NCBI RefSeq assembly: GCF_058153355.1
Contig: NZ_CM177019.1
DNA length: 64,000 bases
Strand: one strand, 5' to 3'
Each line of letters opens with the position of its first letter. The first letter of the stretch is position 1. A program made the position numbers and the translations under genes. Shown piece after piece: positions 7,898-64,000 of the stretch. The notes beneath the pieces were generated by a model. That model had not been told where the DNA came from. It ran no database searches and saw nothing but the letters and a program-made list of their open reading frames with translations.

Positions 7898-9202
<1,305 letters not shown>

Positions 9203-27630: not shown

Positions 27631-27649
27631 CCCGTTGTAAAGTGAGGAT

Positions 27650-29221
27650 ATGGACACCTCACTTGCTCATGAGAATGCCCGCCTGCGGGCACTGTTGCAG
27701 ACGCAACAGGACACCATCCGCCAGATGGCGAAATACAACCGCCTGCTCTCACAGCGGGTGGCGGCTTATGCTTCCGAAATCAACCGGCTGAAGGCGCTGG
27801 TTGCAAAACTGCAGCGCATGCAGTTCGGTAAAAGCTCAGAAAAACTTCGTGCAAAAACCGAACGGCAGATACAGGAAGCACAGGAGCGAATCAGCGCTCT
27901 TCAGGAAGAAATGGCGGAAACGCTGGGTGAGCAATATGACCCGGTACTGCCATCTCCCCTGCGCCAGTCTTCAGCCCGTAAACCGTTACCTGCCTCACTT
28001 CCCCGTGAAACCCGGGTCATCCGTCCGGAAGAGGAATGCTGCCCGGCCTGTGGTGGCGAACTCAGTTCTCTGGGATGTGATGTGTCAGAGCAACTGGAGC
28101 TTATCAGCAGCGCCTTTAAGGTTATCGAAACACAACGTCCGAAACTGGCCTGTTGCCGGTGCGACCATATCGTGCAGGCTCCGGTGCCTTCAAAACCCAT
28201 TGCACGCAGTTATGCCGGAGCGGGGCTTCTGGCCCATGTTGTCGCTGGAAAATATGCAGACCATCTGCCGTTATACCGCCAGTCAGAAATATACCGTCGT
28301 CAGGGCGTGGAGCTGAGCCGTGCCACACTGGGGCGCTGGACAGGTGCTGTTGCTGAACTGCTGGAACCGCTGTATGACATCCTGCGCCAGTATGTGCTGA
28401 TGCCCGGTAAAGTCCATGCCGATGATATCCCCGTTCCGGTCCAGGAGCCGGGCAGCGGTAAAACAAGGACTGCCCGGCTGTGGGTCTACGTTCGTGATGA
28501 CCGTAACGCCGGTTCGGAAATGCCTCCGGCGGTCTGGTTCGCGTACAGCCCGGACCGGAAAGGTATCCATCCACAGAATCATCTGGCCGGTTACAGCGGA
28601 GTGCTTCAGGCCGATGCTTACGGTGGTTACCGGGCGTTGTACGAATCCGGCAGAATAACGGAAGCCGCATGTATGGCTCATGCCCGGAGAAAAATCCACG
28701 ATGTGCATGCAAGAGTGCCCACCGACATCACCACGGAAGCCCTGCAGCGTATCGGTGAACTGTATGCCATCGAGGCAGAGGTCCGGGGCTGTTCAGCAGA
28801 ACAGCGTCTGGCGGCAAGAAAAGCCAGAGCCGCGCCACTGATGCAGTCACTGTATGACTGGATACAGCAACAGATGAAAACACTGTCGCGTCACTCGGAC
28901 ACGGCAAAAGCGTTCGCATACCTGCTGAAACAGTGGGATGCACTGAACGTGTACTGCAGTAATGGCTGGGTGGAAATCGACAACAACATCGCAGAGAACG
29001 CCTTACGGGGAGTGGCCGTAGGCCGGAAAAACTGGCTCTTCGCGGGTTCTGACAGCGGTGGTGAACATGCTGCGGTGTTGTACTCGCTGATCGGCACATG
29101 CCGTCTGAACAATGTGGAGCCAGAAAAGTGGCTGCGTTACGTCATTGAACATATCCAGGACTGGCCGGCAAACCGGGTACGCGATCTGTTGCCCTGGAAA
29201 GTTGATCTGAGCTCTCAGTAA
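27650..29221 (+). CDS. IS66-family transposase (orfC)
   Basis: 523 aa; N-terminal coiled coil/leucine zipper, CxxC zinc motifs (CCPACGG, CCRCDH), DDE domain. Confidence 0.88.
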
Positions 29222-42780: not shown

Positions 42781-44029
<1,249 letters not shown>

Positions 44030-44090: not shown

Positions 44091-44124
44091 TCATTTCTGC
44101 AATATATTGAATTTGGAATAATTT

Positions 44125-44158
44125 GTAGGCCGGATAAGGCGTTTAAGCCGCATCCGGC
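44125..44158. repeat. REP element downstream of IS621 copy 2
   Basis: gtaggccggataaggcgtttaagccgcatccggc palindromic unit. Confidence 0.6.
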
Positions 44159-44206
44159 ATAAACAAAGCGCACTATTCCTGCGTTAAAAAACGCCGGAAA
44201 AACGTT

Positions 44207-44680
44207 TCAAACAGACTGCTGCCGTAGCCGATGCCGCTGCACTTTCTCGACATCCATGCATTGCAACGCTTGTGTTGGGCAAGCTTCAACACAAGCCGGT
44301 CCCGTCGCCCGATGCCAGCACAGATCGCACTTAATCGCCCTCGCCTTTGTGCGTGAAGAAACGACCTCCATCGCACCAAACGGGCAAGCCAGCATACAGC
44401 TTTTACAGCCAATACAACGTGATTGTTCAACGAAAATATGCCCATGTTCGCGACTTATCGCGTCAACAGGGCACACATTTGCGCTCGGTGCATCTTCACA
44501 CTGATGACAGGCTACTGCCGTGGTGTAAGTATGATCTTTAATGACACGAATACGCGAAATAAACTCACCGGGTGACAACGCAGCGCAATCCTGATTCTCC
44601 TGATGCGACACTGCGCAAGCCACTTCACAGGTACGGCAACCGATACATTTCGTCGCATCCGCAATAATAAACCGGTTCAT
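44207..44680 (-). CDS. ysaA: 4Fe-4S ferredoxin-type protein YsaA
   Basis: 157 aa; four CxxCxxCxxxCP cluster motifs. Confidence 0.85.
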   Translation of the reverse strand: MNRFIIADATKCIGCRTCEVACAVSHQENQDCAALSPGEFISRIRVIKDHTYTTAVACHQCEDAPSANVCPVDAISREHGHIFVEQSRCIGCKSCMLACPFGAMEVVSSRTKARAIKCDLCWHRATGPACVEACPTQALQCMDVEKVQRHRLRQQSV

Positions 44681-44781
44681 GATCACTCCTTTGCACTAAA
44701 ACAGCAGAGTGCCAGAGAGCGCGTCTCTACTGCTTTGATCCAACGAAGGAAATGTTAAAGTTTTGGCACTTGTCCAGAGCG

Positions 44782-45630
44782 TTATGTGATCGCGCCCTGG
44801 TCGTCCCTGACAGTAAATCCCAGTTCATTAGAAATAGCCTGCGCGGTTTCACGCAGTGGTTTCAGGAGATTTTTCTCCCCCACCTGTTTCAGACGTGATG
44901 TCGAAAGCGAAATCGACACGGCGTACGGCACCCGCCCATGAATATCAAACACCGGAACAGCAATACAGGAGACGCCGAGTTCGTTTTCTTCTCTGTCCAT
45001 CGCCGCTCCGCTTTCACGAATGTGCGCCAGTTCGTCGAACATCGCGGGCAGCTCGGTAATGGTATTGCGGGTTAACGGCTGGATCTCATGCTGATGGCTT
45101 TCCCAGTATGACTTCACGTAGTCCGGGTGACCAAACGCCATGTAGATCTTGCCCATTGCGGAACAGTAGAGCGGCATATGCTGGCCTATATAAGCTCGGG
45201 TTCGCAGCATCCCGGTCGTGGGTTCCAGCTTATAAATCAAAATAGCGTGATCGTCTTCGCGGCTGGAGAAGTTAATGGTTTCACCAGTGTCGATGTTCAG
45301 TGCCTCAAGATGCGGAGCGGCGATATGAATGATATTCAGCGAAGACAGCGCCTTCTGCCCGACGGCAATAAATTTGGTAGTCAGGCGGTAACTCCCTGCG
45401 GCGGGCGCGGTGGTCACATAGCCGCAGGATTGTAATCCCTGCAATAAGCGATGGACGGTACTCTTATTTAAACCAGCCAGCTCCGAAAGATGCGCCAACG
45501 GACAACCGTTTGGATAGTTGCTCAAAATCTCAATCAGCATCAACCCGCGAAACAGACTCTGGCTTCCGGCTGGACGCTCTTTTTCCTGCGCCATCTCGTT
45601 CTCTTTTTTTCCCATCACTTCTTTCCCCAT
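44782..45630 (-). CDS. yiaJ: IclR-family transcriptional repressor of the yiaK-S operon
   Basis: 282 aa; N-terminal IclR HTH, C-terminal effector domain; divergent from yiaK. Confidence 0.88.
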   Translation of the reverse strand: MGKEVMGKKENEMAQEKERPAGSQSLFRGLMLIEILSNYPNGCPLAHLSELAGLNKSTVHRLLQGLQSCGYVTTAPAAGSYRLTTKFIAVGQKALSSLNIIHIAAPHLEALNIDTGETINFSSREDDHAILIYKLEPTTGMLRTRAYIGQHMPLYCSAMGKIYMAFGHPDYVKSYWESHQHEIQPLTRNTITELPAMFDELAHIRESGAAMDREENELGVSCIAVPVFDIHGRVPYAVSISLSTSRLKQVGEKNLLKPLRETAQAISNELGFTVRDDQGAIT

Positions 45631-45831
45631 TTTGTCGCGTCCTGATGGTAGCGCAAAGTGTGTCGTAGTTCACGATCTCGACAGATAATTTATAACCACT
45701 TGATTTTTAAGTTTTTTGAAATTCATCAATCAGATTGCTTTGTTAAAAAGCGATCGATATATTTGAAATCAGATTTCACATATTGAAATTTTAAGCCAAA
45801 AAAAGCGTTCAAAAAAATAAGGAAGCCAGGG

Positions 45832-46830
45832 ATGAAAGTCACATTTGAGCAGTTAAAAGCAGCCTTTAATCGGGTCTTAATTTCACGCGGTGTTGACAGC
45901 GAAACGGCTGATGCCTGTGCAGAGATGTTCGCCCGCACCACCGAATCCGGTGTTTATTCTCACGGTGTTAACCGCTTCCCACGCTTCATCCAACAATTGG
46001 ATAATGGCGATATCATTCCTGACGCCCAAGCCAAACGTATAACCAGCCTCGGCGCAATTGAACAGTGGGACGCCCAGCGTTCGATCGGTAACCTGACAGC
46101 GAAAAAGATGATGGATCGCGCCATTGAACTGGCTGCCGATCACGGTATTGGTCTGGTGGCGTTGCGTAATGCCAACCACTGGATGCGCGGCGGCAGCTAC
46201 GGCTGGCAGGCGGCGGAAAAAGGCTATATTGGCATTTGCTGGACCAACTCCATCGCCGTAATGCCGCCGTGGGGCGCAAAAGAGTGTCGCATCGGCACTA
46301 ACCCGCTGATCGTCGCCATTCCTTCTACCCCAATCACCATGGTCGATATGTCGATGTCGATGTTTTCCTACGGCATGTTAGAAGTTAACCGCCTTGCAGG
46401 TCGTCAGCTCCCGGTCGATGGCGGCTTTGACGATGAAGGCAATCTCACCAAAGAACCTGGTGTAATCGAGAAAAATCGCCGTATTTTGCCAATGGGTTAC
46501 TGGAAAGGTTCCGGTATGTCGATCGTATTGGATATGATCGCTACTCTTCTTTCTGACGGCGCGTCAGTTGCTGAAGTCACCCAGGATAACAGCGACGAAT
46601 ACGGTGTTTCGCAAATCTTTATCGCCATTGAAGTGGACAAGCTTATCGACGGCCCCACCCGCGATGCCAAGCTGCAACGCATCATGGATTATGTTACTAC
46701 CGCTGAACGCGCCGATGAAAACCAGGCCATTCGCTTACCCGGCCACGAATTTACCACCCTGCTGGCAGAAAACCGCCGTAACGGTATTACCGTTGATGAC
46801 AGCGTATGGGCAAAAATCCAGGCGTTATAA
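45832..46830 (+). CDS. yiaK: 2,3-diketo-L-gulonate reductase
   Basis: 332 aa Ldh_2 family oxidoreductase; first gene of the operon. Confidence 0.88.
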
Positions 46831-46838
46831 GGAGATAA

Positions 46839-47309
<471 letters not shown>

Positions 47310-47426
47310 TCGAATAATCGTCTACGCCAGAACGCCTGGGTAATGTTATTGCTCTAACTATATTAATAATTCAGGTTGCTGCACATGCAACTTGAATTAT
47401 GACAAACATAGCCTCAAGGAATAGCT

Positions 47427-47901
47427 ATGAAAAAAAATACTTGAAGCAATACTGGCGATTAATCTCGCCGTACTTTCCTGTATTGTGTTTATAAACATTA
47501 TTTTAAGATATGGTTTTCAGACAAGTATTTTATCTGTAGATGAATTGTCGCGTTATTTATTTGTCTGGTTAACCTTTATTGGCGCGATTGTGGCTTTTAT
47601 GGATAACGCCCACGTTCAGGTTACCTTTCTGGTGGAGAAACTCTCCCCCGCGTGGCAGCGACGAGTCGCTCTGGTTACCCACGCCTTAATATTATTTATT
47701 TGTGGCGCACTGGCCTGGGGCGCAACGCTAAAAACAATTCAGGACTGGAGCGATTATTCACCGATCCTCGGCTTGCCCATCGGCCTGATGTATGCCGCTT
47801 GTCTGCCCACCAGCCTCGTTATCGCATTCTTTGAGCTGCGCCTTTTATATCAACTCATCACGCGTAGCAATTCTCTAACGCCGCCACCGCAAGGAGCTTA
47901 A
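47427..47901 (+). pseudogene. yiaM: TRAP transporter small permease YiaM, apparent +1 frameshift in A-run at codon 2-4
   Basis: ATG 47427 followed by 8 A (47430-47437) leads to a stop at 47442-47444; with 7 A the frame reads [15 protein letters not shown]... continuous with ORF 47485-47901. Confidence 0.65.
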
Positions 47902-47903
47902 TC

Positions 47904-49181
47904 ATGGCTGTGCTGATTTTTCTGGGCTGCCTGTTGGGTGGCATTGCCATCGGTTTGCCTATTGCCTGGTCGCTACTGTTGTGCGGGGCGGCGCTTATGT
48001 TCTGGCTGGATATGTTTGATGTCCAGATCATGGCGCAAACGCTGGTAAACGGTGCTGACAGCTTCTCCCTGCTGGCGATTCCGTTCTTTGTACTGGCGGG
48101 TGAAATCATGAATGCGGGCGGCTTATCAAAACGCATTGTTGACCTGCCGATGAAACTGGTCGGGCATAAACCAGGCGGGTTGGGCTACGTAGGCGTGCTG
48201 GCGGCAATGATTATGGCGAGCCTTTCCGGTTCTGCTGTTGCGGATACCGCCGCCGTTGCCGCGCTACTGGTGCCGATGATGCGCAGCGCTAACTACCCGG
48301 TCAACCGTGCTGCGGGGCTGATTGCCTCTGGCGGGATTATCGCGCCAATTATTCCCCCTTCCATTCCGTTTATTATCTTCGGTGTTTCCAGCGGATTATC
48401 CATCAGTAAGTTGTTTATGGCGGGAATTGCCCCAGGCATTATGATGGGCGCAACGCTGATGCTCACATGGTGGTGGCAGGCCAGTCGTCTTAATTTACCC
48501 CGTCAGCAAAAAGCAACGAAACGAGAAATCTGGCACTCTTTTGTTTCCGGTATCTGGGCGCTATTTCTTCCGGTCATTATTATTGGCGGCTTTCGCTCCG
48601 GTCTGTTTACCCCTACCGAAGCCGGGGCCGTTGCTGCTTTCTATGCGTTATTTGTCGCCACGGTTATTTACCGTGAAATGACCTTCGCCACACTTTGGCA
48701 TGTACTTATTGGCGCGGCGAAAACCACCTCAGTGGTAATGTTTCTGGTAGCTTCGGCACAAGTTTCCGCCTGGCTAATTACCATTGCTGAACTGCCAATG
48801 ATGGTTTCTGATTTACTGCAACCGTTAGTGGAATCACCGCGTCTGCTGTTTATCGTTATTATGCTGGCGATTTTGATAGTCGGTATGGTAATGGATTTAA
48901 CGCCGACGGTGTTAATTCTTACCCCGGTATTAATGCCTTTAGTTAAAGAGGCAGGAATCGATCCGATTTACTTCGGAGTCATGTTTATCATCAACTGCTC
49001 AATCGGCTTAATTACACCGCCTATCGGTAATGTGCTTAACGTTATTTCAGGGGTGGCTAAACTCAAATTCGATGATGCAGTCAGAGGCGTTTTCCCTTAC
49101 GTCCTGGTTTTATATTCCTTATTAGCCTTATTTGTTTTTATTCCCGATCTCATCATCCTCCCGTTGAAATGGATTAATTAA
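47904..49181 (+). CDS. yiaN: TRAP transporter large permease (DctM-like)
   Basis: 425 aa multi-TM DctM family protein. Confidence 0.9.
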   Translation: MAVLIFLGCLLGGIAIGLPIAWSLLLCGAALMFWLDMFDVQIMAQTLVNGADSFSLLAIPFFVLAGEIMNAGGLSKRIVDLPMKLVGHKPGGLGYVGVLAAMIMASLSGSAVADTAAVAALLVPMMRSANYPVNRAAGLIASGGIIAPIIPPSIPFIIFGVSSGLSISKLFMAGIAPGIMMGATLMLTWWWQASRLNLPRQQKATKREIWHSFVSGIWALFLPVIIIGGFRSGLFTPTEAGAVAAFYALFVATVIYREMTFATLWHVLIGAAKTTSVVMFLVASAQVSAWLITIAELPMMVSDLLQPLVESPRLLFIVIMLAILIVGMVMDLTPTVLILTPVLMPLVKEAGIDPIYFGVMFIINCSIGLITPPIGNVLNVISGVAKLKFDDAVRGVFPYVLVLYSLLALFVFIPDLIILPLKWIN

Positions 49182-49193
49182 AAGGAAAATATA

Positions 49194-50180
49194 ATGAAAT
49201 TACGCTCTGTAACCTACGCATTATTCATTGCTGGCCTCGCTGCATTCAGTACGTCTTCGCTGGCGGCACAATCATTACGTTTCGGTTATGAAACCTCACA
49301 AACCGACTCACAACATATTGCAGCGAAAAAATTTAATGAATTATTACAGGAGAGAACCAAAGGCGAGCTGAAATTAAAACTGTTCCCGGACAGTACTCTC
49401 GGCAACGCACAAGCGATGATCAGCGGCGTGCGTGGCGGCACTATTGATATGGAGATGTCTGGCTCGAATAACTTTGCCGGATTATCACCTGTGATGAACC
49501 TGCTGGATGTTCCTTTCCTGTTCCGCGATACCGCCCACGCGCATAAAACACTCGACGGCAAAGTCGGCGATGAACTGAAGGCCTCCCTTGAAGGTAAGGG
49601 ACTGAAAGTACTGGCCTACTGGGAAAACGGCTGGCGCGATGTCACCAACTCACGCCAACCGGTTAAAACGCCTGGCGACCTGAAAGGGCTGAAAATCCGC
49701 ACCAACAACAGCCCGATGAATATCGCCGCATTTAAAGTATTTGGCGCTAACCCTATCCCGATGCCGTTTGCCGAAGTCTATACCGGACTGGAAACACGCA
49801 CTATCGACGCTCAGGAACATCCCATCAACGTCGTCTGGTCGGCAAAATTTTATGAAGTGCAGAAGTACCTATCTCTGACTCACCATGCCTATTCCCCGCT
49901 TCTGGTAGTGATCAACAAAGCGAAATTTGATGGCTTAAGCCCGGAGTTCCAGCAAGCGCTAATTTCATCTGCGCAAGAAGCGGGTAATTACCAGCGCAAA
50001 TTGGTCGCCGAAAATCAGCAAAAAATCATCGACGGCATGAAAGACGCTGGCGTGGAAGTCATCACCGAACTTGATCGCAAAGCCTTTAGCGACGTACTGG
50101 GTACTCAGGTCCGCGACATGTTTGTAAAAGATGTTCCGCAGGGCGATGAACTGCTGAAAGCCGTGGATGAGGTGCAATAA
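49194..50180 (+). CDS. yiaO: TRAP transporter periplasmic solute-binding protein (2,3-diketo-L-gulonate)
   Basis: 328 aa; signal peptide; DctP family. Confidence 0.9.
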   Translation: MKLRSVTYALFIAGLAAFSTSSLAAQSLRFGYETSQTDSQHIAAKKFNELLQERTKGELKLKLFPDSTLGNAQAMISGVRGGTIDMEMSGSNNFAGLSPVMNLLDVPFLFRDTAHAHKTLDGKVGDELKASLEGKGLKVLAYWENGWRDVTNSRQPVKTPGDLKGLKIRTNNSPMNIAAFKVFGANPIPMPFAEVYTGLETRTIDAQEHPINVVWSAKFYEVQKYLSLTHHAYSPLLVVINKAKFDGLSPEFQQALISSAQEAGNYQRKLVAENQQKIIDGMKDAGVEVITELDRKAFSDVLGTQVRDMFVKDVPQGDELLKAVDEVQ

Positions 50181-50183
50181 GCC

Positions 50184-51680
50184 ATGACGCAATACTGGCT
50201 GGGGTTAGATTGTGGCGGAAGCTGGCTAAAAGCCGGACTGTATGACCGCGAAGGCCGGGAGGCAGGCGTGCAGCGCCTGCCGCTGTGCGCATTAAGCCCG
50301 CAGCCAGGCTGGGCAGAGCGCGATATGGAAGAACTGTGGCAATGCTGCATGGCTGTCATTCGCGCCCTGCTTACCCATTCCAGCGTTAGCGGGGAGCAAA
50401 TTGTCGGCATCGGTATCTCCGCACAGGGAAAGGGCTTGTTTTTGCTGGATAAAAACGACAAGCCGCTCGGTAACGCCATTTTGTCCTCGGATCGCCGGGC
50501 GATGGAAATCGTTCGTCGCTGGCAGGAAGATAGCATCCCGGAAAAACTCTACCCGCTGACCCGACAAACCTTGTGGACCGGGCATCCGGTGTCGCTGTTA
50601 CGCTGGCTGAAAGTGCACGAACCAGAACGCTACGCGCAAATTGGCTGCGTGATGATGACGCACGACTACCTGCGTTGGTGTTTAACCGGCGTCAAAGGCT
50701 GTGAAGAGAGCAATATTTCCGAATCCAATCTCTACAACATGAGTCGCGGGGAATATGACCCGTGCCTCACCGACTGGCTGGGGATCAGTGAAATCAATCA
50801 CGCCCTGCCGCCTGTTGTTGGATCTGCCGAAATCTGCGGGGAAATCACCGCTCAGACAGCCGCACTGACCGGTCTGCAAGCGGGTACGCCCGTTGTCGGC
50901 GGCCTGTTTGATGTGGTTTCTACCGCACTCTGCGCCGGAATCGAAGACGAATTTACCCTCAATGCGGTGATGGGGACCTGGGCGGTGACCAGCGGCATAA
51001 CCTGCGGTTTACGTGACGGTGAAGCGCATCCGTATGTCTATGGTCGCTACGTTAACGATGGTGAATTTATCGTTCACGAAGCCAGCCCTACCTCTTCCGG
51101 CAATCTCGAATGGTTTACCGCGCAGTGGGGAGAAATCTCGTTTGCAGAGATCAACCAGGCTGTTGCCAGCTTACCGAAAGCCGGTGGCGATCTCTTTTTC
51201 CTGCCGTTCCTGTACGGCAGCAACGCCGGACTCGAGATGACCAGCGGTTTCTACGGGATGCAGGCCATTCACACCCGCGCACACCTGTTGCAGGCCATTT
51301 ATGAAGGCGTGGTGTTCAGCCATATGACCCACCTCAACCGGATGCGCGAACGTTTTACTGATGTGCACACCCTGCGCGTCACTGGCGGCCCGGCGCACTC
51401 CGATGTCTGGATGCAAATGCTGGCGGACGTTAGCGGACTGCGTATCGAACTGCCGCAGGTGCAAGAAACGGGCTGTTTTGGCGCGGCGCTTGCCGCCCGC
51501 GTCGGCACCGGAGTTTATCGCGATTTCAGCGAAGCCCAGCGCGATCAACAGCACCCGGTGCGTACCCTGTTACCGGATATGACCGCCCATCAGCTTTACC
51601 AACAAAAATACCAACGCTATCAGCACCTCATTGCCGCACTACAGGGCTTTCATGCCCGCGTTAAGGAGAACACATTATGA
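50184..51680 (+). CDS. lyxK: L-xylulose/3-keto-L-gulonate kinase
   Basis: 498 aa FGGY-family carbohydrate kinase. Confidence 0.9.
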   Translation: MTQYWLGLDCGGSWLKAGLYDREGREAGVQRLPLCALSPQPGWAERDMEELWQCCMAVIRALLTHSSVSGEQIVGIGISAQGKGLFLLDKNDKPLGNAILSSDRRAMEIVRRWQEDSIPEKLYPLTRQTLWTGHPVSLLRWLKVHEPERYAQIGCVMMTHDYLRWCLTGVKGCEESNISESNLYNMSRGEYDPCLTDWLGISEINHALPPVVGSAEICGEITAQTAALTGLQAGTPVVGGLFDVVSTALCAGIEDEFTLNAVMGTWAVTSGITCGLRDGEAHPYVYGRYVNDGEFIVHEASPTSSGNLEWFTAQWGEISFAEINQAVASLPKAGGDLFFLPFLYGSNAGLEMTSGFYGMQAIHTRAHLLQAIYEGVVFSHMTHLNRMRERFTDVHTLRVTGGPAHSDVWMQMLADVSGLRIELPQVQETGCFGAALAARVGTGVYRDFSEAQRDQQHPVRTLLPDMTAHQLYQQKYQRYQHLIAALQGFHARVKENTL

Positions 51681-52339
51681 GCAGACCACTTCTGCAACTG
51701 GCCCTCGACCACTCATCACTTGAAGCCGCACAGCGCGACGTTACGCTGTTAAAAGACAGCGTCGATATCGTCGAAGCAGGCACTATTCTCTGTTTAAACG
51801 AAGGGCTTGGCGCGGTGAAAGCCTTGCGCGAACAGTGCCCGGACAAAATCATCGTTGCTGACTGGAAGGTCGCCGATGCTGGTGAAACGCTCGCGCAACA
51901 GGCGTTTGGCGCAGGCGCTAACTGGATGACCATCATCTGCGCCGCACCGCTCGCGACGGTGGAAAAAGGCCACGCGATGGCGCAACGCTGCGGTGGTGAA
52001 ATCCAGATAGAGCTTTTTGGTAACTGGACGCTGGACGACGCCCGCGACTGGCATCGTATTGGCGTGCGGCAGGCGATTTATCATCGTGGTCGTGACGCGC
52101 AGGCCAGCGGGCAACAGTGGGGCGAAGCCGATCTGGCACGCATGAAGGCGCTTTCCGATATCGGCCTTGAGCTTTCCATTACCGGCGGGATTACGCCTGC
52201 TGACCTGCCGCTGTTTAAAGATATCCGCGTGAAAGCGTTTATTGCCGGGCGGGCGCTGGCAGGCGCAGCAAATCCGGCACAGGTAGCTGCCGACTTCCAT
52301 GCGCAAATCGACGCTATCTGGGGAGGCGCGCGTGCGTAA
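51677..52339 (+). CDS. sgbH: 3-keto-L-gulonate-6-phosphate decarboxylase
   Basis: 220 aa OMP-decarboxylase-like family member. Confidence 0.9.
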
Positions 52340-53192
52340 TCATCCGTTAGGGATTTATGAAAAAGCGCTGGCGAAAGATCTCTCCTGGCCGGAGCGGCTG
52401 GTGCTGGCAAAAAGCTGCGGTTTTGATTTTGTCGAAATGTCGGTGGATGAAACCGACGAGCGTCTGTCGCGCCTTGACTGGAGCGCCGCACAAAGGACTT
52501 CGCTGGTTGCCGCGATGATCGAAACGGGTGTTGGGATCCCGTCGATGTGCCTGTCCGCACATCGTCGTTTTCCCTTTGGTAGCCGTGACGACGCGGCACG
52601 CCAGCGAGCACGGGAGATCATGAGTAAAGCAATTCGTCTGGCGCGCGATCTCGGTATTCGCACCATTCAACTGGCGGGCTACGACGTCTATTACGAAGCC
52701 CATGACGAAGGCACGCAGCAACGTTTTGCCGAAGGGCTGGCGTGGGCGGTTGAACAGGCAGCCGCCGCGCAGGTGATGCTGGCGGTGGAGATTATGGATA
52801 CTGCGTTTATGAACTCCATCAGCAAATGGAAAAAATGGGACGAGATACTCGCTTCGCCGTGGTTCACCGTCTACCCGGACGTCGGCAACCTTAGCGCCTG
52901 GGGCAATGATGTTCCCGCTGAACTGAAACTGGGCATTGACCGTATCGCCGCCATCCACCTGAAAGATACCCAGCCAGTGACCGAGCATAGCCCCGGACAG
53001 TTCCGCGACGTGCCGTTTGGCGAAGGCTGCGTCGATTTCGTTGGTATCTTCAAAACGCTGCATGAACTGAACTATCGCGGATCATTTCTGATTGAGATGT
53101 GGACCGAAAAAGCCAAAGAGCCGGTGCTGGAGATTATTCAGGCGCGGCGCTGGATTGAAGCGCGTATGCAGGAGGCCGGATTTATATGTTAG
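52332..53192 (+). CDS. sgbU: L-ribulose-5-phosphate 3-epimerase
   Basis: ORF 52299-53192; start [12 protein letters not shown] at GTG 52332 gives 286 aa; xylose-isomerase-like TIM barrel. Confidence 0.88.
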
Positions 53193-53680
53193 AGCGATTG
53201 AAAGCCGACGTGCTGGCGGCGAATCTGGCGCTTTATCGTCGCTATGCAGAAATTGGCGGTATTGTGCATACCCACTCGCGCCACGCCACCATCTGGTCAC
53301 AGGCCGGGCTGGATCTCCCCGCCTGGGGCACCACGCACGCCGATTATTTCTATGGTGCCATCCCCTGCACGCGACAGATGACCGCAGAGGAGATTAACGG
53401 CGAATATGAATATCAGACCGGCGAAGTGATCATTGAAACTTTCGAAGAACGCGGCAGGAGTCCGGCACAAATCCCGGCGGTATTGGTGCATTCTCACGGT
53501 CCGTTCGCCTGGGGCAATAACGCCGCCGATGCGGTGCATAATGCCGTGGTACTCGAAGAGTGCGCCTATATGGGCCTGTTCTCGCGCCAGCTTGCGCCGC
53601 AGCTTCCTGCGATGCAAAACGAACTTCTGGATAAGCATTACCTGCGTAAGCATGGGGCCAATGCCTATTACGGGCAGTAA
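53186..53680 (+). CDS. sgbE: L-ribulose-5-phosphate 4-epimerase SgbE with 67-codon in-frame internal deletion
   Basis: 164 aa instead of about 231; N-terminus [16 protein letters not shown] joins directly to [17 protein letters not shown], omitting the conserved N-terminal class II aldolase segment. Confidence 0.75.
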
Positions 53681-53688
53681 TCTATCAC

Positions 53689-53710
53689 GCCGGGGCTTCA
53701 TTGCCCCGGC
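53689..53710. terminator. bidirectional hairpin between sgbE and convergent AraC-family gene
   Basis: gccggggcttcattgccccggc. Confidence 0.45.
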
Positions 53711-53711
53711 A

Positions 53712-54527
53712 CTACGAATTGATATGTTCCTTGCTGTAACGTCGCTTCCACGCAGCTGGCGTTAAACCGGTGTGTTTGCGAAAAATCTGTCGGAAATAGC
53801 CAACGTCATTAAACCCGCACAACGCCGCCACTTCCGTGAGCGATCGCGCTTCGCTAATTAACAGCTTTTCGGCTTCGCGCACTCGCTGGCGGTGGATTGC
53901 TTCTGTTAACGTCAGATGAAACACCCGCCGATAGACACGCCCAAGATAATCGGCATTGCAGTACAGCTCGCGGGCTAAAAGCGCCGTAGAAAGCGGGCGA
54001 TGATATTGCGTGCGGATCAGTTTCTGCGCTTTCCAGGCAAGCGTGGTACCTGCGGCATCGGCCTGTTCATCAAGACGCGCGTCACGGGTGAGTTGCTGCA
54101 AAATCAGCAGCACAATAAACTCCAGCGCCGGAGTGCGTTGATGCTTTTCCTGTTCGCTTAAGAACTGGCGAAACAGGGCCACCAGCGCCTGCGGATCGGC
54201 AACCTTCGTTTGTTGCGGCACGCTAAGATGAGTGAGCCAGCGCGGGTCGCTATCCGGCGCTTTAACCTCAAAATGCAGCCAGTAAAATTTGAGATCGGCG
54301 GGAAAATCCTCTACCCCAACATGCTGTCGGTTCGGCCAGAGTAATAAACTCTCTCCCGCATCGACCAGAAATATCCGCTCTTCTTCCTGAATCGTTAATC
54401 GACCTTTTTCGACAAAGATAATTTCCCATGACTCCAGCCGCCTTGCCGGATGCCTCCCTACGCCACGGGAAATAAATAATCCACCATTTTGCACTTTAAT
54501 CGGTAACGTCATGGATAATTCGAGCAT
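53712..54527 (-). CDS. AraC-family transcriptional regulator (cupin sensor domain plus HTH)
   Basis: 271 aa; C-terminal AraC HTH signature (GFNDVGYFRQIFRKHTGLTPAAWKRR); divergent from transporter gene. Confidence 0.85.
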   Translation of the reverse strand: MLELSMTLPIKVQNGGLFISRGVGRHPARRLESWEIIFVEKGRLTIQEEERIFLVDAGESLLLWPNRQHVGVEDFPADLKFYWLHFEVKAPDSDPRWLTHLSVPQQTKVADPQALVALFRQFLSEQEKHQRTPALEFIVLLILQQLTRDARLDEQADAAGTTLAWKAQKLIRTQYHRPLSTALLARELYCNADYLGRVYRRVFHLTLTEAIHRQRVREAEKLLISEARSLTEVAALCGFNDVGYFRQIFRKHTGLTPAAWKRRYSKEHINS

Positions 54528-54752
54528 TGATATGTAATTTCCCGCTTATTCATTAATGATTAAACACATTACCTTTTGATTATTAATCAAAAACATTAAT
54601 TTCACCTGATCCAATTCACACTTTTAAATTCAGGTCGGAATCGTCACCTTTTTTTACTCTTTTCTCGCCTTGTTGATATTCCCGTTCACGGCAGAATTAA
54701 TCATGTCATTTCAATAAAACTAAAAATTGCTCCCTATGCACGAGGAATATCT

Positions 54753-56153
54753 ATGACCTCTACACCGATTACTACCGCTGATATCGCTAAAGGTAAAATT
54801 GACGATGCGTTATCTGTACGGGAAAAAATAGGCTACGGCCTGGGTGACGCAGGCGGCACCGTAATAACTTGCCTGATCATGAACTTTCTCACCTTTTTCT
54901 ACACCGACGTTTTTGGCTTAACTCCGGCGCTGGTCGGCACGCTGTTTATTGCACTGCGCGTGTTTGATGCCATCTCCGACCCGGTGATGGGCGTCATTGC
55001 CGACCGGACGCAAAGCCGCTGGGGGCGTTTTCGTCCGTGGCAGCTATGGATTGCCGTCCCTATTGGCATTATCGGCATCCTGACGTTCACCGTACCGGAC
55101 GCCAGTATGGGGGTGAAGATCGCCTGGGCGTTCGGCACCTATCTGCTGCTTTCCGTCGGTTATACCGCCATCAACGTGCCGTACTGCGCGCTGATCAACA
55201 CCATGACGACCCGCCACAATGAGGTAATTTCGTGCCAGTCCTGGCGATTCGTTCTCTGCGGCGTAGCGGGATTTCTGGTTTCGGTTGGCCTGCCGTGGAT
55301 GGTAGATCTCTTCGGTCAGGGTAATGCCGCGCGCGGCTATCAACTGGGCGTCGGCGTGCTGTGCGCCATCGCTGTGGTGATGTTCCTGTGCTGTTTCTTC
55401 TGGGTTCGTGAACGGGTGCCACTCTCCACAATGGGGAAATTTACCCTGCGCGAACATCTTGCCGGGCTGCGAAACAACGACCAACTGCTGCTGATGCTGG
55501 TCATGTCTTTCCTGCTGATTAACGTCTTTAATATTCGCGGCGGTGGGTATATGTACTTCATTACCTACGTCTTACAAGGCAGTACGGGCTACACGTCGCT
55601 GTTCTTCACTATGGTCACCTTCGCCTCCATTATCGGCTCGGTGATTGTCAGCCCGTTAACGCGACGTTTCGATACCGTCAAAATTTACTACTACACCAAC
55701 CTGCTCCTCGCCGCGCTGGCGGTGTTGATGTGGTTCCTGCCTTCTGGCCCGGCTTATCAAACGCTGTGGCTGGCGGTGATCCTTGGTAATGGCGTGATTC
55801 TTGGCTTCACATTGCCATTGCACTTCTCATTGATGGCCTTTGCCGATGACTACGGCGAGTGGAAAACCCGCGTACGTTCTTCCGGCATGAACTTCGCCTT
55901 CAATCTGTTTTTCATCAAGCTGGCCTGGGCCTCCAGCGCCGGGATCATCAGCCTGCTGTTTATTTTTGTCGCCTACCAGCCTGGCGTGGAAAACCAGACC
56001 GCCAGTTCGCTTGGCGGGATCGCGGCGATGGAAACATTGCTGCCTGCGCTGTTCCACCTGCTGCTGGCGATGGCGATCCGCTTTTGCAAACTCAATAACC
56101 CTATGATGTCACGCATTGCTAGCGACCTGCGTCAGCGTCATGTACAGCCTTAA
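54753..56153 (+). CDS. GPH-family glycoside-pentoside-hexuronide:cation symporter
   Basis: 466 aa, 12 TM; MelB/YicJ-like N-terminal motif ([24 protein letters not shown]). Confidence 0.85.
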
Positions 56154-56163
56154 GGAGCACAAG

Positions 56164-58134
56164 ATGAACATTTCGGAAGTCGATCTGCATAAACTGACGG
56201 TCAGCGATCCGTTCCTCGGTCAGTACCAACAACTGGTCCGCGACGTGGTGATTCCTTATCAGTGGGATGCCTTGAACGATCGTATCCCAGAAGCGGAACC
56301 CAGCCATGCGATTGAAAACTTTCGCATTGCCGCAGGACTGCAAGACGGTGAATTTTACGGGATGGTGTTTCAGGACAGCGACGTCGCCAAATGGCTGGAA
56401 GCGGTAGCCTGGTCGCTGTGCCAGAAGCCGGATGCCGAACTGGAAAAAACTGCTGACGAGGTAATCGAACTGGTCGCTTCCGCCCAGTGCGAAGATGGCT
56501 ATCTCAATACTTACTTTACGGTAAAAGCGCCCGAAGAACGCTGGAGCAATCTGGCGGAGTGTCATGAACTTTACTGCGCCGGTCATCTGATTGAAGCCGG
56601 AGTCGCCTTCTTCCAGGCCACGGGCAAGCGGCGCTTGCTGGAAGTGGTTTGCCGTCTGGCCGATCATATCGACAGCGTATTTGGTCCAGGTGAAAGTAAG
56701 TTACACGGTTATCCTGGTCATCCGGAAATTGAACTGGCACTGATGCGCCTGTATGAAGTGACCGAAGAGCCGCGCTACCTGGCGCTGACGAACTATTTTG
56801 TCGAACAGCGTGGTGCGCAACCGCACTATTACGACTAGGAATATGAAAAGCGCGGGCAGACCTCGCACTGGCACACCTACGGCCCGGCGTGGATGGTGAA
56901 AGACAAAGCCTACAGCCAGGCACATTTGCCCATCGCACAGCAGCAAACCGCCATTGGTCACGCGGTACGTTTTGTCTACCTGATGACCGGCGTCGCGCAT
57001 CTCGCGCGTTTAAGTCACGATGAAAGCAAGCGTCAGGACTGCCTGCGGCTGTGGAACAATATGGCCCAGCGTCAGTTATATATTACCGGCGGCATTGGCT
57101 CACAAAGCAGCGGCGAAGCGTTCAGCAGCGATTACGATCTGCCGAATGACACGGTATACGCCGAAAGCTGTGCTTCCATCGGCCTGATGATGTTCGCCCG
57201 GCGAATGCTGGAAATGGAAGGCGACAGTCACTATGCCGATGTGATGGAGCGCGCACTGTACAACACCGTGCTCGGCGGCATGGCGCTGGATGGCAAACAT
57301 TTCTTCTATGTGAATCCGCTGGAAGTACATCCAAAATCGCTGAAATTCAACCATATCTACGATCACGTTAAGCCGATCCGCCAGCGTTGGTTTGGTTGCG
57401 CTTGTTGTCCGCCAAATATCGCCCGCGTGCTAACCTCGATTGGTCATTATCTCTACACGCCGCGTGAAGATGCGTTGTATATCAACATCTACGCAGGAAA
57501 CAGCATGGAAGTGCCGGTAGAAAATGGCACGCTGCGTCTGCGGGTTAGCGGAAACTATCCGTGGCAGGAACAGGTGACAATTGCGGTTGAATCGCCCCAG
57601 CCGGTGCGTCATACGCTGGCTTTACGTCTGCCGGACTGGTGCACACAGCCGCAGATTACATTGAATGGGGAAGAGGTCGAGCAGGATATTCGTAAAGGGT
57701 ATTTGCACATTACCCGCGAATGGCAGGAGGGCGACACGCTGAATCTGACTTTGCCAATGCCGGTACGTCGCGTTTACGGTAACCCGCTGGTGCGTCACGT
57801 CGCCGGAAAAGTGGCGATTCAGCGCGGCCCGCTGGTGTATTGCCTGGAACAGGCCGACAACGGCGAGTCACTGCATAACCTGTGGCTGCCCGCCGATGCG
57901 CCATTTACGACATTTGAAGGTAATGGATTGTTCCGCCATAAGATCTTAATCCAGGCACCGGGTTACCGGTATGAACAGAGCAATCCAGAGCAGCAACCGC
58001 TGTGGCATTACGACAGCGCGCCAGCCAAACGCCAGCCGCAAACTCTGACATTTATCCCGTGGTTTAGCTGGGCTAACCGGGGTGAAGGCGAAATGCGGAT
58101 CTGGGTGAATGAGGAAAACCAGTGCCATCCGTAG
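56164..58134 (+). pseudogene. GH127-like (DUF1680, beta-L-arabinofuranosidase family) glycoside hydrolase interrupted by in-frame TAG
   Basis: ORFs 56116-56838 and 56893-58134 are in the same frame, separated by TAG at 56836-56838; combined about 655 aa; RBS aaggag before ATG 56164. Confidence 0.7.
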
Positions 58135-58215
58135 GTAGGATAAGGCGCTCGCGCCGCATCCAACCTAGGGTGCACATTGCCTGATGCGACGCTTAACGCG
58201 TCTTATCAAGCCTGA
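58135..58215. repeat. REP elements between GH127 gene and yiaT
   Basis: ggataaggcgctcgcgccgcatcc and gcctgatgcgacgcttaacgcgtcttatcaagcct units. Confidence 0.6.
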
Positions 58216-58263
58216 AGGTCAGTGCGAGAGCGTAGGCCAGCCGCACCGACATCCACCGGTAAA

Positions 58264-59004
58264 TTAAAAACGCCAGCTCACGCCGGTGACAAAGGTAAAA
58301 CTCTCATTACGATCAATCATCGGGCTGTCGGTAATCTCTTCCGGCAGCTCGCTGTATCCGGCACTCGCCATCAATACGATGTGCTCTCCTATCGGGTATT
58401 TTGCCGTCAGGCTGACATAGGGCACCCAGGCATCCTGCGCGGAATAACTTGCCAGACCGCTACGACGGGACTCACTCTCTGAAATGCCATAGTAATAGTC
58501 ACTGAAATTCTCGTCATAATAGAGAACGCCCAGTGCAGGTGTCAGCGACAGGCGACCTATCTGCATTTTGTGAAATACCGATAGCTCCCCCACCCAGCCG
58601 TTGCTGTTATCCAGAACGTCCGCAGCCGCAGAGGCTTTCACGGTTCCCCAACGCTCGTGGTGATACCAGGCAACCCCCGCCATAGCCGTACTATCACGCT
58701 TATCAAGCTGTTGCATGGCATGATCGTCATTATCTGCAGGGTCAAATTCCAGCGGCATCCAGGATGCGGTCAGGCTAAGTTCATTTTTTTCACTTTGCGA
58801 CAGAATAAAACCTAACGTGGTCTGACGAACATAAAAAGAATCACCTTCATAACTAATCAGCGGAATTGCCTTTGTATTTTCATTATAACCACGATAAGGC
58901 GATTCATTATAAGCTGCACCAGCACCAATGGATAATTCAGAAGCAGTAGCGCTTGCCATAAAAGGCAACGTAAATAACGCCACAATATTGCGGTTAATTA
59001 ACAT
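58264..59004 (-). CDS. yiaT: MipA/OmpV-family outer membrane protein YiaT
   Basis: 246 aa; signal peptide; beta-barrel C-terminal F. Confidence 0.85.
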   Translation of the reverse strand: MLINRNIVALFTLPFMASATASELSIGAGAAYNESPYRGYNENTKAIPLISYEGDSFYVRQTTLGFILSQSEKNELSLTASWMPLEFDPADNDDHAMQQLDKRDSTAMAGVAWYHHERWGTVKASAAADVLDNSNGWVGELSVFHKMQIGRLSLTPALGVLYYDENFSDYYYGISESESRRSGLASYSAQDAWVPYVSLTAKYPIGEHIVLMASAGYSELPEEITDSPMIDRNESFTFVTGVSWRF

Positions 59005-59127
59005 GTCCGGTATTCCATTTTAAAATAAGATAAAAAAGAGTCGGCATAATAATGCTTACAATTTCTCCGGTGCAAGATTCATATTTATATAGTAATATAT
59101 AAAATTATATATAATTGGGCTGTTGCG

Positions 59128-60102
59128 ATGACAAAATTACAACTTAAGTACCGGGAGTTAAAAATTATCTCGGTAATCGCTGCCAGTGAAAATATCAGCC
59201 ATGCCGCGACTGTACTTGGATTCGCACAGGCCAACGTCAGCAAATATCTTGCTGATTTTGAATCAAAAGTAGGTTTAAAAGTCTTTGACCGAACCACCCG
59301 GCAGTTGATGCTCACACCTTTTGGTACCGCGCTGTTACCGTACATCAACGACATGCTGGACAGAAACGAGCAACTTAATAATTTTATTGCAGATTATAAG
59401 CATGAGAAACGTGGTCGGGTCACCATCTACGCCCCAACCGGCATAATTACCTATTTATCCAAACATGTTATCGATAAAATTAAAGATATCGGTGATATCA
59501 CCTTATCGCTAAAAACCTGCAATCTTGAGCGTAATGCCTTTTATGAAGGTGTCGAATTTCCCGATGATTGTGATGTTTTAATCAGCTATGCTCCACCAAA
59601 AGATGAATCGCTGGTTGCCAGTTTTATTACGCAATATGCCGTAACCGCTTATGCCAGTCAGCGCTATCTTGAGAAACATCCCATTAGCCGTCCTGACGAA
59701 CTCGAACATCACTCCTGTATTTTGATCGACTCGATGATGATCGACGACGCGAATATCTGGCGCTTCAACGTCGCCGGGAGTAAAGAGGTGCGGGATTATC
59801 GCGTGAAGGGAAATTACGTTTGCGACAACACGCAATCGGCGCTGGAGCTGGCACGAAATCACCTGGGGATTGTGTTTGCGCCAGACAAAAGTGTGCAGAG
59901 CGACCTGCAAGACGGCACGCTGGTGCCCTGCTTTCAGCAACCGTATGAATGGTGGCTGGATCTGGTGGCTATCTTCCGTAAACGGGAATACCAGCCCTGG
60001 CGGGTCCAGTATGTGCTGGATGAAATGCTGCGTGAAATTCGCCACCAGCTTGCTCAGTCGCAGCAACTGCGGCCTGAACAAGCGGCGGAAAGCGAAGATT
60101 AA
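59128..60102 (+). CDS. yiaU: LysR-family transcriptional regulator YiaU
   Basis: 324 aa; N-terminal LysR HTH. Confidence 0.85.
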
Positions 60103-61235
60103 TGATCGAGATAAAGGTAATGCACCCAACTGGTCATGCGTAACAGCACTTTGCGCATCACCGAGACATGGCTGAAATGATCAGAGTAAACCGCCACCTG
60201 GGCGTAAATACCGTCTGGTAAAGCGCTCAACTCAGTGTGCTCATCCAGTTCAATGGTCGCGATAACGCCATCTGAACCCGGTGCTGTGTTTAACGTCTGT
60301 AAGGTGCCGGTCGACTGATAAGCTCCGCCGGGAACAGCTGGGCTAATGGCTGCCAGCTTACCGCTGAATACCTTACCTGGCAGAGCATTAAACACCACTT
60401 CCGCATCATCGCCGGGAGCCAGTCGCAGCAAGGAGTTCTGACGGAACTGCGCCACAATTTGTCGTTTCTGATCGGGTATAAACACCATCACAGGACGTAG
60501 CGGCAGCGATGCGGCATAGGTACCCGGACGAATCAGCACTTGCGTCACATAACCATCGCTCGGCGCACGCACTATCGTCTGCTCAAGGTTATATTTTGCT
60601 TCCGCGAGCTGCGCTTTCAGGCTGGCGATTTGAGAATGTTCACCCAACACCAGGCTATCCAGCTGGCTCTGGATCTGTTTTTGTTCCGCCGCCGATGACT
60701 TTACGGAGGCTTCCTGCGCCAGATAATTTTGCCGCGCCACATCAATATCGCGTTCTGAAAACGGGTTTACTTTCGCCTGGCTGCCGCGTGCGTAACGCTG
60801 GTACTCTTTAGCGAATTTATCCCGCGTGGCCTTTGCCTGCTGAGTATTCGCCGCCATCTCATCTAACTCTGCGCCCAACGCCCGCTGTTTATGTTCTGCG
60901 GTAACGATATCCGCCATCAGCCGATCCACCCGCGCCTGATAACGCGTCGGGTCCAGTCGAAATAGCACCTCACCTTTTTTAATCAGCGTATTTTTCTTGT
61001 CCGTCACTTCGATCACCACGCCTGTCACCTGCGGGACAACAGGAATAGAAATAACTGCTTTTTGCGCTTTAAAGGTATACGGATGGTTATAGTTCATTAA
61101 CAGAATTAGACCGCTGACAATAAATATGCCACCCAGGGCCGCGGTGGGAATGGTCCATTTATTTACAGGAATTTTGAAGATCTTAAACATTGCCCATGCG
61201 AAAGCCACATAGGTCAAAATAATCAGTAAATCCAT
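60099..61235 (-). CDS. yiaV: HlyD-family membrane fusion (periplasmic adaptor) protein YiaV
   Basis: 378 aa; N-terminal TM, coiled coil, barrel-sandwich domain. Confidence 0.85.
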
Positions 61236-61240
61236 AAGTA

Positions 61241-61564
61241 TTACTCGGCAGAAGAGGATTTGATGTCGGCGAGCTGTTTCTCCAGCCCGGCAATACGCTG
61301 TTGTAGTTGCACAACGGAGGAGTCATGGTTTTGCATTCCCCATCCCCGCTCCGGGCGATAAAGCGTGGCCCAAATCCACAAAAATGGCCAGATAACATGC
61401 AGCGTAAAAAGACTCACCCAACCAGCAACATGAATGGCGTCGGCATGAGGATGATTACGTTTTTTAGCAATCAGGTAGGGAATATCATGTAAAATAATAA
61501 TCCCATAGAATATCACCAGAAATACAAAAATAAGCACTCCCAGTGCAAAATAGTCCAGGAACAT
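61241..61564 (-). CDS. yiaW: DUF3302 inner membrane protein YiaW
   Basis: ORF 61241-61594; start [11 protein letters not shown] at internal ATG gives 107 aa. Confidence 0.8.
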
Positions 61565-61725
61565 ATTTCCCTCAGAGAATATAAAAAAGAACAATTAACG
61601 CATATTATGAAATGCCATGATGCAGTGCAATTTCCTTATTTATATAACGACATATTGTTTTTTATATACTTTCCGAAGTGTGCTACCTGGCTTTTCAACA
61701 GGTCGAGGTTTATCATATTGAAATA

Positions 61726-62061
61726 ATGGAACTATTGACCAAACTAATGAATAACCCCAGTAAAACATCCACAGTACAGATAAAGCGTATTAAACCTTCA
61801 ATTATCTACCGTTTATTGCTGATTGGCCTCGGAACACCAATGGTGATTTACGGTCTGGTTTGCGGCGTTTTAGGCATATTTGGCTACGATCAGGTGAGAT
61901 GGAACGACACCGTGATCCACGGCCTGCTGGCCCTGCCTGCGGGATTGCTTGCAGGCCTGTCAGTCAGTGTGTTCCTCACCGTGGTGATTGGCACCATCGC
62001 TTGTTTTGGTCTGTGGCTGTACAGCCTGGTCCGCCCGCTCACCATCGAAACGCGAGATTAA
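61726..62061 (+). CDS. hypothetical small inner membrane protein (3 predicted TM helices)
   Basis: ORF 61678-62061; likely start MELLTKLMNNPSK at ATG 61726 (111 aa); hydrophobic segments; tail-to-tail 4-bp overlap with hicB-like gene. Confidence 0.5.
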   Translation: MELLTKLMNNPSKTSTVQIKRIKPSIIYRLLLIGLGTPMVIYGLVCGVLGIFGYDQVRWNDTVIHGLLALPAGLLAGLSVSVFLTVVIGTIACFGLWLYSLVRPLTIETRD

Positions 62062-62468
62062 ACGCCCGGCAATACACGCCGGGCGGCTTCCGCCAGAAAC
62101 GCACTTCTGTTGGCGTAGTCTGGGTTATTGCGCACGTAGGTATCAATCTTGTTCAGTAATCTTTTCGGCATCGTAATATTGATACGTTCAGCCCGACCTT
62201 CGAACTGATTCATATTGATATCCACCAGCAACCATTGCCCGCCAATAAAGTCCTGCGCACGCTGGACCAGATGTGTTTCCACAGAGCCTGGAAGCGGCAA
62301 CTCTTCATTCATCTCGCATAAGGTTTCGAAGTGCGCGACCAGTGCACTTCGCGCATCCTGGAAAGCGTTGTCCAGCGTATCACCAGCAAAATAACAGCCT
62401 GGAACATCAGGGAAAAAACCGCTGGCGCTGCCGTCAGGATCACTGTGGATATAGGCGGGATAAAACAT
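62058..62468 (-). CDS. hicB: HicB-family antitoxin (RNase H-like fold plus C-terminal ribbon-helix-helix)
   Basis: 136 aa; C-terminal RHH motif ERINITMPKRLLNKIDTYV...RSAFLAEAA; immediately downstream of hicA-like gene. Confidence 0.75.
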   Translation of the reverse strand: MFYPAYIHSDPDGSASGFFPDVPGCYFAGDTLDNAFQDARSALVAHFETLCEMNEELPLPGSVETHLVQRAQDFIGGQWLLVDINMNQFEGRAERINITMPKRLLNKIDTYVRNNPDYANRSAFLAEAARRVLPGV

Positions 62469-62484
62469 ATTGCCTCCTGAAATT

Positions 62485-62670
62485 TTAAAATGTTAAACCA
62501 GCCTGACGCCCAATTTGCGCCAGCGTACCGGGCTTAATATCTTTTTTAGGGTGCGGAACCGTCACCAGACCCGGATGAACAGGGTGGCGGAACTGATGAT
62601 GACTACCACGGGTTCGAATATGTTCCCAGCCATGCTGCTTCAGGATGGCGATCACGTCTGCACTTTTCAC
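62485..62670 (-). CDS. hicA: HicA-family toxin (YcfA-like mRNA interferase)
   Basis: 61 aa; dsRBD-like motif with conserved GSHHQF...PGLVTVPHPKKD. Confidence 0.8.
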   Translation of the reverse strand: MKSADVIAILKQHGWEHIRTRGSHHQFRHPVHPGLVTVPHPKKDIKPGTLAQIGRQAGLTF

Positions 62671-62947
62671 ATCCCTGCCCTTCCATGATTATACACACGA
62701 TACACACACATTTAGCAATAACAATCACGATAGCGCGATTTATATGGGCCGTCAGGGGGATAAAGTTGACTCAGGAATGCCGTTCGGAAGAAGAATAACG
62801 GTGTGCAGTAACTTGTTGAAAAGATGTGAGGAGACTCGTAATTAAGTTCAATCAATATTCAGTCATTCAAGACGTAGACATTTGAATTGGTAAAACGCGA
62901 AAGCGTCGCATCAGGCAATGAATACCCGATGCGACCAGCTTCTTACA

Positions 62948-64000
62948 TCAGAACAGCCCCAACGGTTTATCTGAGTAGCTCACCAGCAGGCACTTGGTTT
63001 GCTGATAATGCTCAAGCATCATCTTATGGGTTTCGCGCCCAATACCCGACTGCTTATAGCCACCAAACGCCGCATGTGTCGGGTAAGCGTGATAACAGTT
63101 GGTCCACACTCGCCCGGCCTGAATGCCGCGCCCCATCTTATAGGCCAGATTACCGTTGCGGCTCCAGACACCAGCCCCCAGACCATATTGCGTGTCGTTC
63201 GCCAGCTCCAGCGCTTCTTCCATCGTTTTGAAGGTGGTTACCGCCAGCACCGGACCAAAAATTTCTTCCTGGAACACGCGCATATTATTCTGACCAAACA
63301 GAATCGTCGGTTCGAGGTAGTAGCCGTCTTTCAGTTCGCCTTCCAGCAGCTTGCGCCGCCCACCGGTGAGCACGTCTGCGCCCTCTTTTTTACCGATATC
63401 AATGTAGTTGAGGATGGTTTCCAGTTGCCCGTGCGAAACTTGCGCCCCCATTTGCGTCACGCTATCGAGCGGGTTACCGCTGCGAATGCTTTCGACACGG
63501 CGGATGGCGCGTTCCATAAAGCGTTCGTAGATAGACTCCTGCACTAAAGCACGGCTTGGACAGGTGCAAACTTCGCCCTGGTTAAAGGCAAACAGTGCAA
63601 AGCCTTCCAGCGCTTTATCGAAAAAGGCATCTTCTTCATCCATCACATCAGCAAAGAAGATATTGGCGACTTGCCGCCCAGCTCCAGGGTTACCGGAATA
63701 ATATTTTGCGTGGCGTACTGCATAATTTGTTGGCCCACTTCCGTTGAGCCGGTAAACGCCACTTTAGCGATGCGTTTCGAGGTCGCCAGATATTCGCCAA
63801 TTTCCCCACCAGCACCGTTGACCACGTTCACCACGCCCGGCGGCAGTAAATCACCGACGATTTCCATTAGCAGCAGTACAGAAAGCGGGGTAAGACGTGC
63901 GGGTTTCAGCACCACACAGTTGCCCGCCGCCAGCGCGGGAGCCATTTTCCAGCTCGCCATCAGCAGCGGGAAGTTCCACGGAATAATCTGCCCCACCACG
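62948..64000 (-). pseudogene. aldB: aldehyde dehydrogenase B, 3' portion, with -1 frameshift
   Basis: C-terminal 232 aa (ORF 62948-63646) and upstream segment (ORF 63643-63999) are in different frames; the frame breaks after LELGGKSP where the plus strand reads gatattggcga (TT at 63663-63664) instead of an expected TTT; gene continues beyond the window. Confidence 0.7.

Follow-up and report, generated by a model that had tools for sequence, protein, structure and literature searches.

The closest described counterpart of the locus analyzed here is AldB of E. coli (b3588), an ExaC-type acetaldehyde dehydrogenase of the ALDH superfamily, whose gene stands in the chromosomal order selB-yiaY-aldB-hicAB-yiaW. 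AldB is reportedly a non-essential, RpoS-dependent aldehyde dehydrogenase of stationary phase, and E. coli possesses paralogous aldehyde dehydrogenases beside it, so that loss of the gene should be tolerated. The paper that we consulted for AldB function used aldB merely as an expression marker, and a literature search on aldB pseudogenes returned nothing relevant. Related arrangements are known from gene-decaying E. coli and Shigella-like lineages, in which single-base indels create lineage-restricted frameshift pseudogenes in dispensable metabolic genes; in Shigella, expansion of IS1, IS600, and IS629 is typical. They are also known from the programmed frameshift genes of E. coli (dnaX, -1; prfB, +1), in which two overlapping frames jointly encode one family domain.

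The locus described here occupies the same chromosomal position as E. coli aldB but differs from it in that the protein is truncated at 280 aa, 231 C-terminal codons are out of frame, and a private A470T replacement is present. It resembles the frameshift pseudogenes of gene-decaying lineages in being a dispensable metabolic gene broken by a single-base indel in a restricted lineage, and, as in Shigella-type decay, the lesion is accompanied by nearby pseudogenes and IS insertions. Unlike in Shigella, those insertions amount to just three copies in 64 kb, of IS621 and an IS66-family element rather than an expansion of the Shigella elements. As in dnaX and prfB, two overlapping frames together encode one family domain, but the slippery site, stimulatory structure, and conserved shifted arrangement of those genes are missing from aldB. 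As a frameshift pseudogene, the broken aldB is unremarkable and belongs to a kind that annotation pipelines flag as a matter of routine.

The window, the 64,000-nucleotide stretch of DNA that we analyzed, carries aldB on its minus strand at its very end, and the gene continues past position 64000. The in-window part, assigned by blastn to annotated aldB, spans 62948..64000 (minus strand) and comprises the final 1,053 nt, corresponding to nt 486 to 1538 of the 1,538-nt broken gene. We took the 5' 485 nt that lie beyond position 64000 from a Logan contig of run SRR31441161 (locus L006), which is 100% identical to the window over the 5,822 bases that they have in common. We identified the gene from the syntenic RefSeq annotation "aldehyde dehydrogenase AldB," flanked by yiaY and hicA. 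The neighborhood, selB-yiaY-aldB-hicA-hicB-yiaW-yiaV-yiaU, matches annotated E. coli chromosomes, and the order from yiaY to yiaV is that of annotated RefSeq genomes, which places aldB at its conserved position. Nucleotide identity to intact aldB alleles is 96.6 to 98.5%. Against the ExaC acetaldehyde dehydrogenase model of NCBIfam (NF050026; cut-off, 900 bits), the 512-aa protein obtained by restoring the reading frame reaches 915.5 bits over profile positions 2 to 503 of 503, a match that holds only for the restored sequence. The restored protein also aligns end to end with the solved ALDH structures 9fm9 and 9koi and is one residue apart from WP_000183978.1. By descent and position the locus is aldB, yet what it encodes falls short of a complete member of the ALDH family.

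The ORF list, Rfam, and a promoter and terminator scan gave no sign of another feature on the opposite strand or in the flanks of the aldB site. Near the deletion described below, the promoter and terminator scan returned nothing meaningful, its sole report being a hairpin of 5 bp (GGCG...CGCC) located immediately 5' of the deletion. Directly downstream of aldB lies an intact hicA/hicB type II toxin-antitoxin pair (62058-62670, minus strand), as in the closest E. coli genomes.

The lesion consists of one missing base. From 63690 to 63641, the gene strand reads ACC CTG GAG CTG GGC GGC AAG TCG CCA ATA TCT TCT TTG CTG ATG TGA, with CCA-ATA in place of the CCA-AAT-ATC of intact E. coli aldB genes. 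We aligned window positions 62900 to 64000 with two intact, RefSeq-annotated E. coli aldB genes (L001 and L002), and the single gap within the coding sequence was one A lost from CCAAAT. This 1-bp deletion lies at 63663..63664 (minus strand) in codon 275 (Asn), where the gene strand has AA versus AAA (plus strand, TT versus TTT) and CCA AAT becomes CCA AT. A premature TGA stop follows six codons past the deletion, at 63643..63645 (minus strand), and the gap and early stop together disrupt the frame relative to intact orthologues. Re-adding one A yields a continuous 512-aa frame that joins the open reading frame at 62948-63646. The difference from the conserved gene is deterministic rather than statistical. 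A sequence-only reading of the same DNA had reported that the frame breaks after LELGGKSP, and the alignment bears this out; its placement of the break at TT in 63663-63664, the base that it restored, and its restored peptide all proved correct by alignment and translation. It had not spelled out that the gene lies on the minus strand or that its first 485 nt are outside the window. It had proposed comparison with aldB from relatives, and the intact genes indeed differ at the site by exactly the extra base.

The deletion separates the two halves of the enzyme. The in-window part of the N-terminal fragment occupies 63643..63999 (minus strand) in the ORF list and matches Pfam Aldedh positions 1 to 242 of 461 as well as PROSITE PS00687. 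In full, this fragment has 280 aa, namely, native residues 1 to 274 followed by ISSLLM. It carries the glutamate active-site motif LELGGKSP (PS00687), with the Glu268 codon at 63682-63684, and the last codon of this motif directly precedes the deletion. The out-of-frame C-terminal remnant (62948..63646, minus strand; also from the ORF list) matches Pfam Aldedh positions 247 to 459 of 461 and carries the cysteine active-site motif (PROSITE PS00070), with the Cys307 codon at 63566-63568. It has 232 aa if counted from the GTG at 63646-63644 or 231 aa from the ATG at 63643-63641, and it ends in ...KPLGLF. A single Pfam Aldedh domain (PF00171) is divided between the fragments, and the glutamate and cysteine motifs are not found on one polypeptide: E268 and C307 are in different frames, with the frameshift and the stop between them.

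Translation from the native start would yield 280 aa, ending at the TGA. Such a product would retain the cofactor-binding half and the catalytic Glu268 but would be without the strand NIFFADV, whose native residues, located after the catalytic Glu motif, are replaced by ISSLLM, and without the whole catalytic-cysteine half from Cys307 onward. Since both would be missing, no aldehyde dehydrogenase activity is expected. From the separation of Glu268 and Cys307 and the loss of NIFFADV, we infer that AldB activity is lost in carriers of the deletion.

Our searches found the broken allele in very few data sets. The deletion was absent from complete E. coli genomes when these were queried with 81 nt around the site: the best of the 5,178 matching genomes reached 98.8% over the query, with every base identical but the one gap. 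Exact and degenerate pattern scans did not find the allele in GTDB species representatives, nor did a pattern scan find it in JGI metagenome contigs. Exact look-up located both fragment proteins on Logan contigs of 12,025 nt that stem from two sequencing runs, and a look-up via neighboring genes added run SRR8656992 and the GenBank assembly GCA_015332025.1 (contig AAXEGZ010000069.1). All 1,538 nt of the broken gene are the same in SRR31441161 (L006), SRR8656992 (L021), and GCA_015332025.1 (L020). The GenBank contig AAXEGZ010000069.1 aligns with window positions 44093-63680 with 0 gaps and 4 mismatches and reads GATATTGGCGAC across the deletion site. Over ~26 kb of flanking DNA, the genotype of the window and SRR31441161 differs from that of GCA_015332025.1 and SRR8656992 by 5 SNPs, four in the window (44485, 46805, 47683, and 61232) and the fifth in yiaY, outside the window. 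We count the independent isolates as two, not four, because SRR8656992 and GCA_015332025.1, and likewise SRR31441161 and the window genome, may be pairs. The flanks of the two genotypes differ by SNPs, and so at least two separately sequenced isolates inherited the deletion; the lesion is real and shared across data sets, and a sequencing error is effectively excluded.

The alternative, an intact aldB with TTT in the true genome (gene strand, AAA), is thus extremely unlikely, although several observations would suit it. The missing base lies within a short homopolymer (3 A), the deletion occurs in no complete RefSeq E. coli genome, and another single-base indel of the window, an A7 to A8 change in yiaM, sits in a long homopolymer. 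However, runs of only three bases are not prone to error, and the deletion recurs: an independent NCBI assembly has it, as do the k-mer-based assemblies built for two SRA runs with widely separated accession numbers, and these data sets differ by flanking SNPs. Two other lesions of the window, a nonsense substitution and a deletion of 201 bp, are also atypical of sequencing errors. We dropped sequencing error as an explanation once independent assemblies and runs with differing flanks had proved to share the deletion exactly. The sequence-only reading had left the choice between a pseudogene and a sequencing error, of which the pseudogene stands and the error does not, since GCA_015332025.1, SRR8656992, and SRR31441161, representing two genotypes, all have the same TT. 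It had named reads with TTT as the observation that would overturn it; the assemblies built from reads show TT instead. The NCBI record shows no protein call between yiaY and hicA, as would be the case if the annotator already regarded aldB as a pseudogene.

Two further readings concern the expression of the broken gene. A programmed -1 ribosomal frameshift or transcriptional slippage might restore full-length AldB: a shift of -1 following CCA would make AAT the next codon and give the exact wild-type protein, and both frames are open over a 121-nt stretch. Yet that overlap has neither a slippery heptamer of the form X XXY YYZ nor a homopolymer of at least 5 bases, the downstream RNA fold is ordinary (z = -1.08), and there is no Rfam match. 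The shifted arrangement is, moreover, limited to one small lineage (0 of 5,178 complete E. coli genomes have it, and the best-matching ones are identical over the 81-nt stretch bar the extra base), which is the opposite of what is expected for a programmed event. With slippery heptamer, long homopolymer, special fold, Rfam match, and conservation all lacking, we reject recoding and regard its likelihood as very small. Alternatively, the 280-aa and 231-aa fragments might both be made and reassemble into a partly active dehydrogenase, in which case the lineage would keep some AldB function despite the frameshift. The second fragment would arise by termination-reinitiation at TGATG, where the TGA (63645-63643) and the ATG (63643-63641) overlap by one base in a classic coupling arrangement that could permit some synthesis of the C-terminal fragment. 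Each fragment is still a strong match to its own half of the Aldedh profile, and neither half has an additional stop or frameshift. Against reassembly, no Shine-Dalgarno-like sequence precedes the ATG, the seven native residues NIFFADV in the motif after the catalytic Glu are exchanged for ISSLLM, and the stop/start overlap is a mere by-product of the wild-type GATGTGATGG read in the shifted frame. A young deletion would explain the absence of further lesions equally well, and the A470T replacement at a conserved position hints at relaxed constraint, though as a single event only. We therefore consider a functional split enzyme very unlikely.

We conclude, with a probability of about 0.93, that aldB here is a genuine, inherited loss-of-function pseudogene, created by the loss of one A (CCAAAT to CCAAT) in the ancestor of a small E. 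coli-type lineage. No data contradict the pseudogene reading. Replication slippage in the 3-A run of codon 275 would be the most likely origin. Setting the deletion aside, comparison with L001, the nearest intact allele, reveals 20 codons with synonymous changes and a single replacement, A470T. This ratio of 20 synonymous to 1 non-synonymous change shows that purifying selection acted until recently and that the lesion is young, and so the codon comparison points to a recent inactivation. The replacement is located in codon 470 (63077..63079, minus strand), within a conserved block, and reads ACC (Thr) versus GCC (Ala) in the nearest intact alleles. Ala is also found at this position in 9fm9, a solved homologue with ~75% identity. 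No complete E. coli genome matched the 71-nt stretch around codon 470 exactly. We also considered an intact sister allele carrying T470, but exact look-up of the restored 512-aa protein with T470 in the protein collection found none on record. A470T is compatible with relaxed constraint after inactivation; as a single event, it proves nothing.

To place the aldB lesion in its genomic context, we compared the 56 reference coding sequences of a syntenic annotated genome with the window. All 56 matched, and most are intact and gap-free, so indels are not widespread in the assembly. The window has four disrupted genes other than aldB: yiaM, sgbE, a GH127 gene, and yhjY. In yiaM, which encodes the small permease of the 2,3-diketo-L-gulonate TRAP transporter, A8 replaces the A7 of the reference right after the ATG (47427-47442, plus strand), giving ATG AAA AAA AAT ACT TGA and a stop after five codons. 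The A8 is also present in GCA_015332025.1 and in the contigs of SRR8656992 and SRR31441161, in alignments with zero gaps. The L-ribulose-5-phosphate 4-epimerase gene sgbE (53186-53680, plus strand) has a 201-bp in-frame deletion that leaves 164 aa versus 231; the deletion is bounded by two copies of the 11-bp direct repeat ATCTGGCGCTT, and the exact shortened product was found on only 4 contigs in the public collection. Together, sgbE and yiaM represent two lesions within the yiaK-S operon. The GH127 glycoside hydrolase gene (56164-58134, plus strand) is interrupted by a CAG-to-TAG change at codon 225 of 656 (56836-56838). In yhjY, encoding an autotransporter beta-barrel protein (13060-13759, minus strand), one base is added at 13582, changing ACAACGAT to ACAACAGAT in a non-homopolymer context and dividing the gene into open reading frames of 70 aa and 212 aa. 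Because these lesions are of several mutational types, real gene decay fits them better than a sequencing-platform artifact.

Further differences were seen in these comparisons. Nine short Logan contigs from other, unrelated samples (~98% identical) all stop one base before GH127 codon 225, a pattern suggestive of a break in the assembly graph at a polymorphic position. In ysaB (24833-25141, minus strand), a 9-bp in-frame insertion relative to the reference forms a duplication-like GCTTATGGC in the signal-peptide region.

Three IS copies are present in the window, two of IS621 and one of an IS66-family element. The IS621 (IS110 family) transposase open reading frames are located at 8173-9153 (copy 1), between dppA and eptB near the reference tRNA-Pro site, and at 43000-43980 (copy 2), between ysaA and avtA at the same site as in strain MFDS1022581; both copies are 98.6% identical to the annotated copy in that strain. 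The IS66-family element (26858-29221, plus strand) lies between yiaA and yiaB, an interval of 45 bp in the reference, and its three open reading frames match HTH_Tnp_1, TnpB_IS66, and DDE_Tnp_IS66. Over its last 25 kb, the window has at most ~98.1 to 98.7% identity to any complete RefSeq E. coli, and the lineage is thus unrepresented among 5,426 complete genomes. Gene by gene, identity to a single reference spans 93% to 100%, and this spread is that of a recombination mosaic. The four further disrupted genes and the three IS copies fit a gene-decaying lineage.

For annotation, aldB should be recorded in these genomes as a frameshifted pseudogene, neither "corrected" as an assembly error nor entered as two short dehydrogenase genes. 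Because the deletion is absent from the 5,178 complete E. coli genomes, the GTDB representatives, and the JGI contigs, it is usable as a marker of a small lineage. The lesion may interest those who type or trace isolates that carry it, and it has little significance beyond annotation. Taken with the lesions in yiaM, sgbE, the GH127 gene, and yhjY and with the IS copies, the broken aldB suggests a lineage that is shedding accessory catabolic functions.
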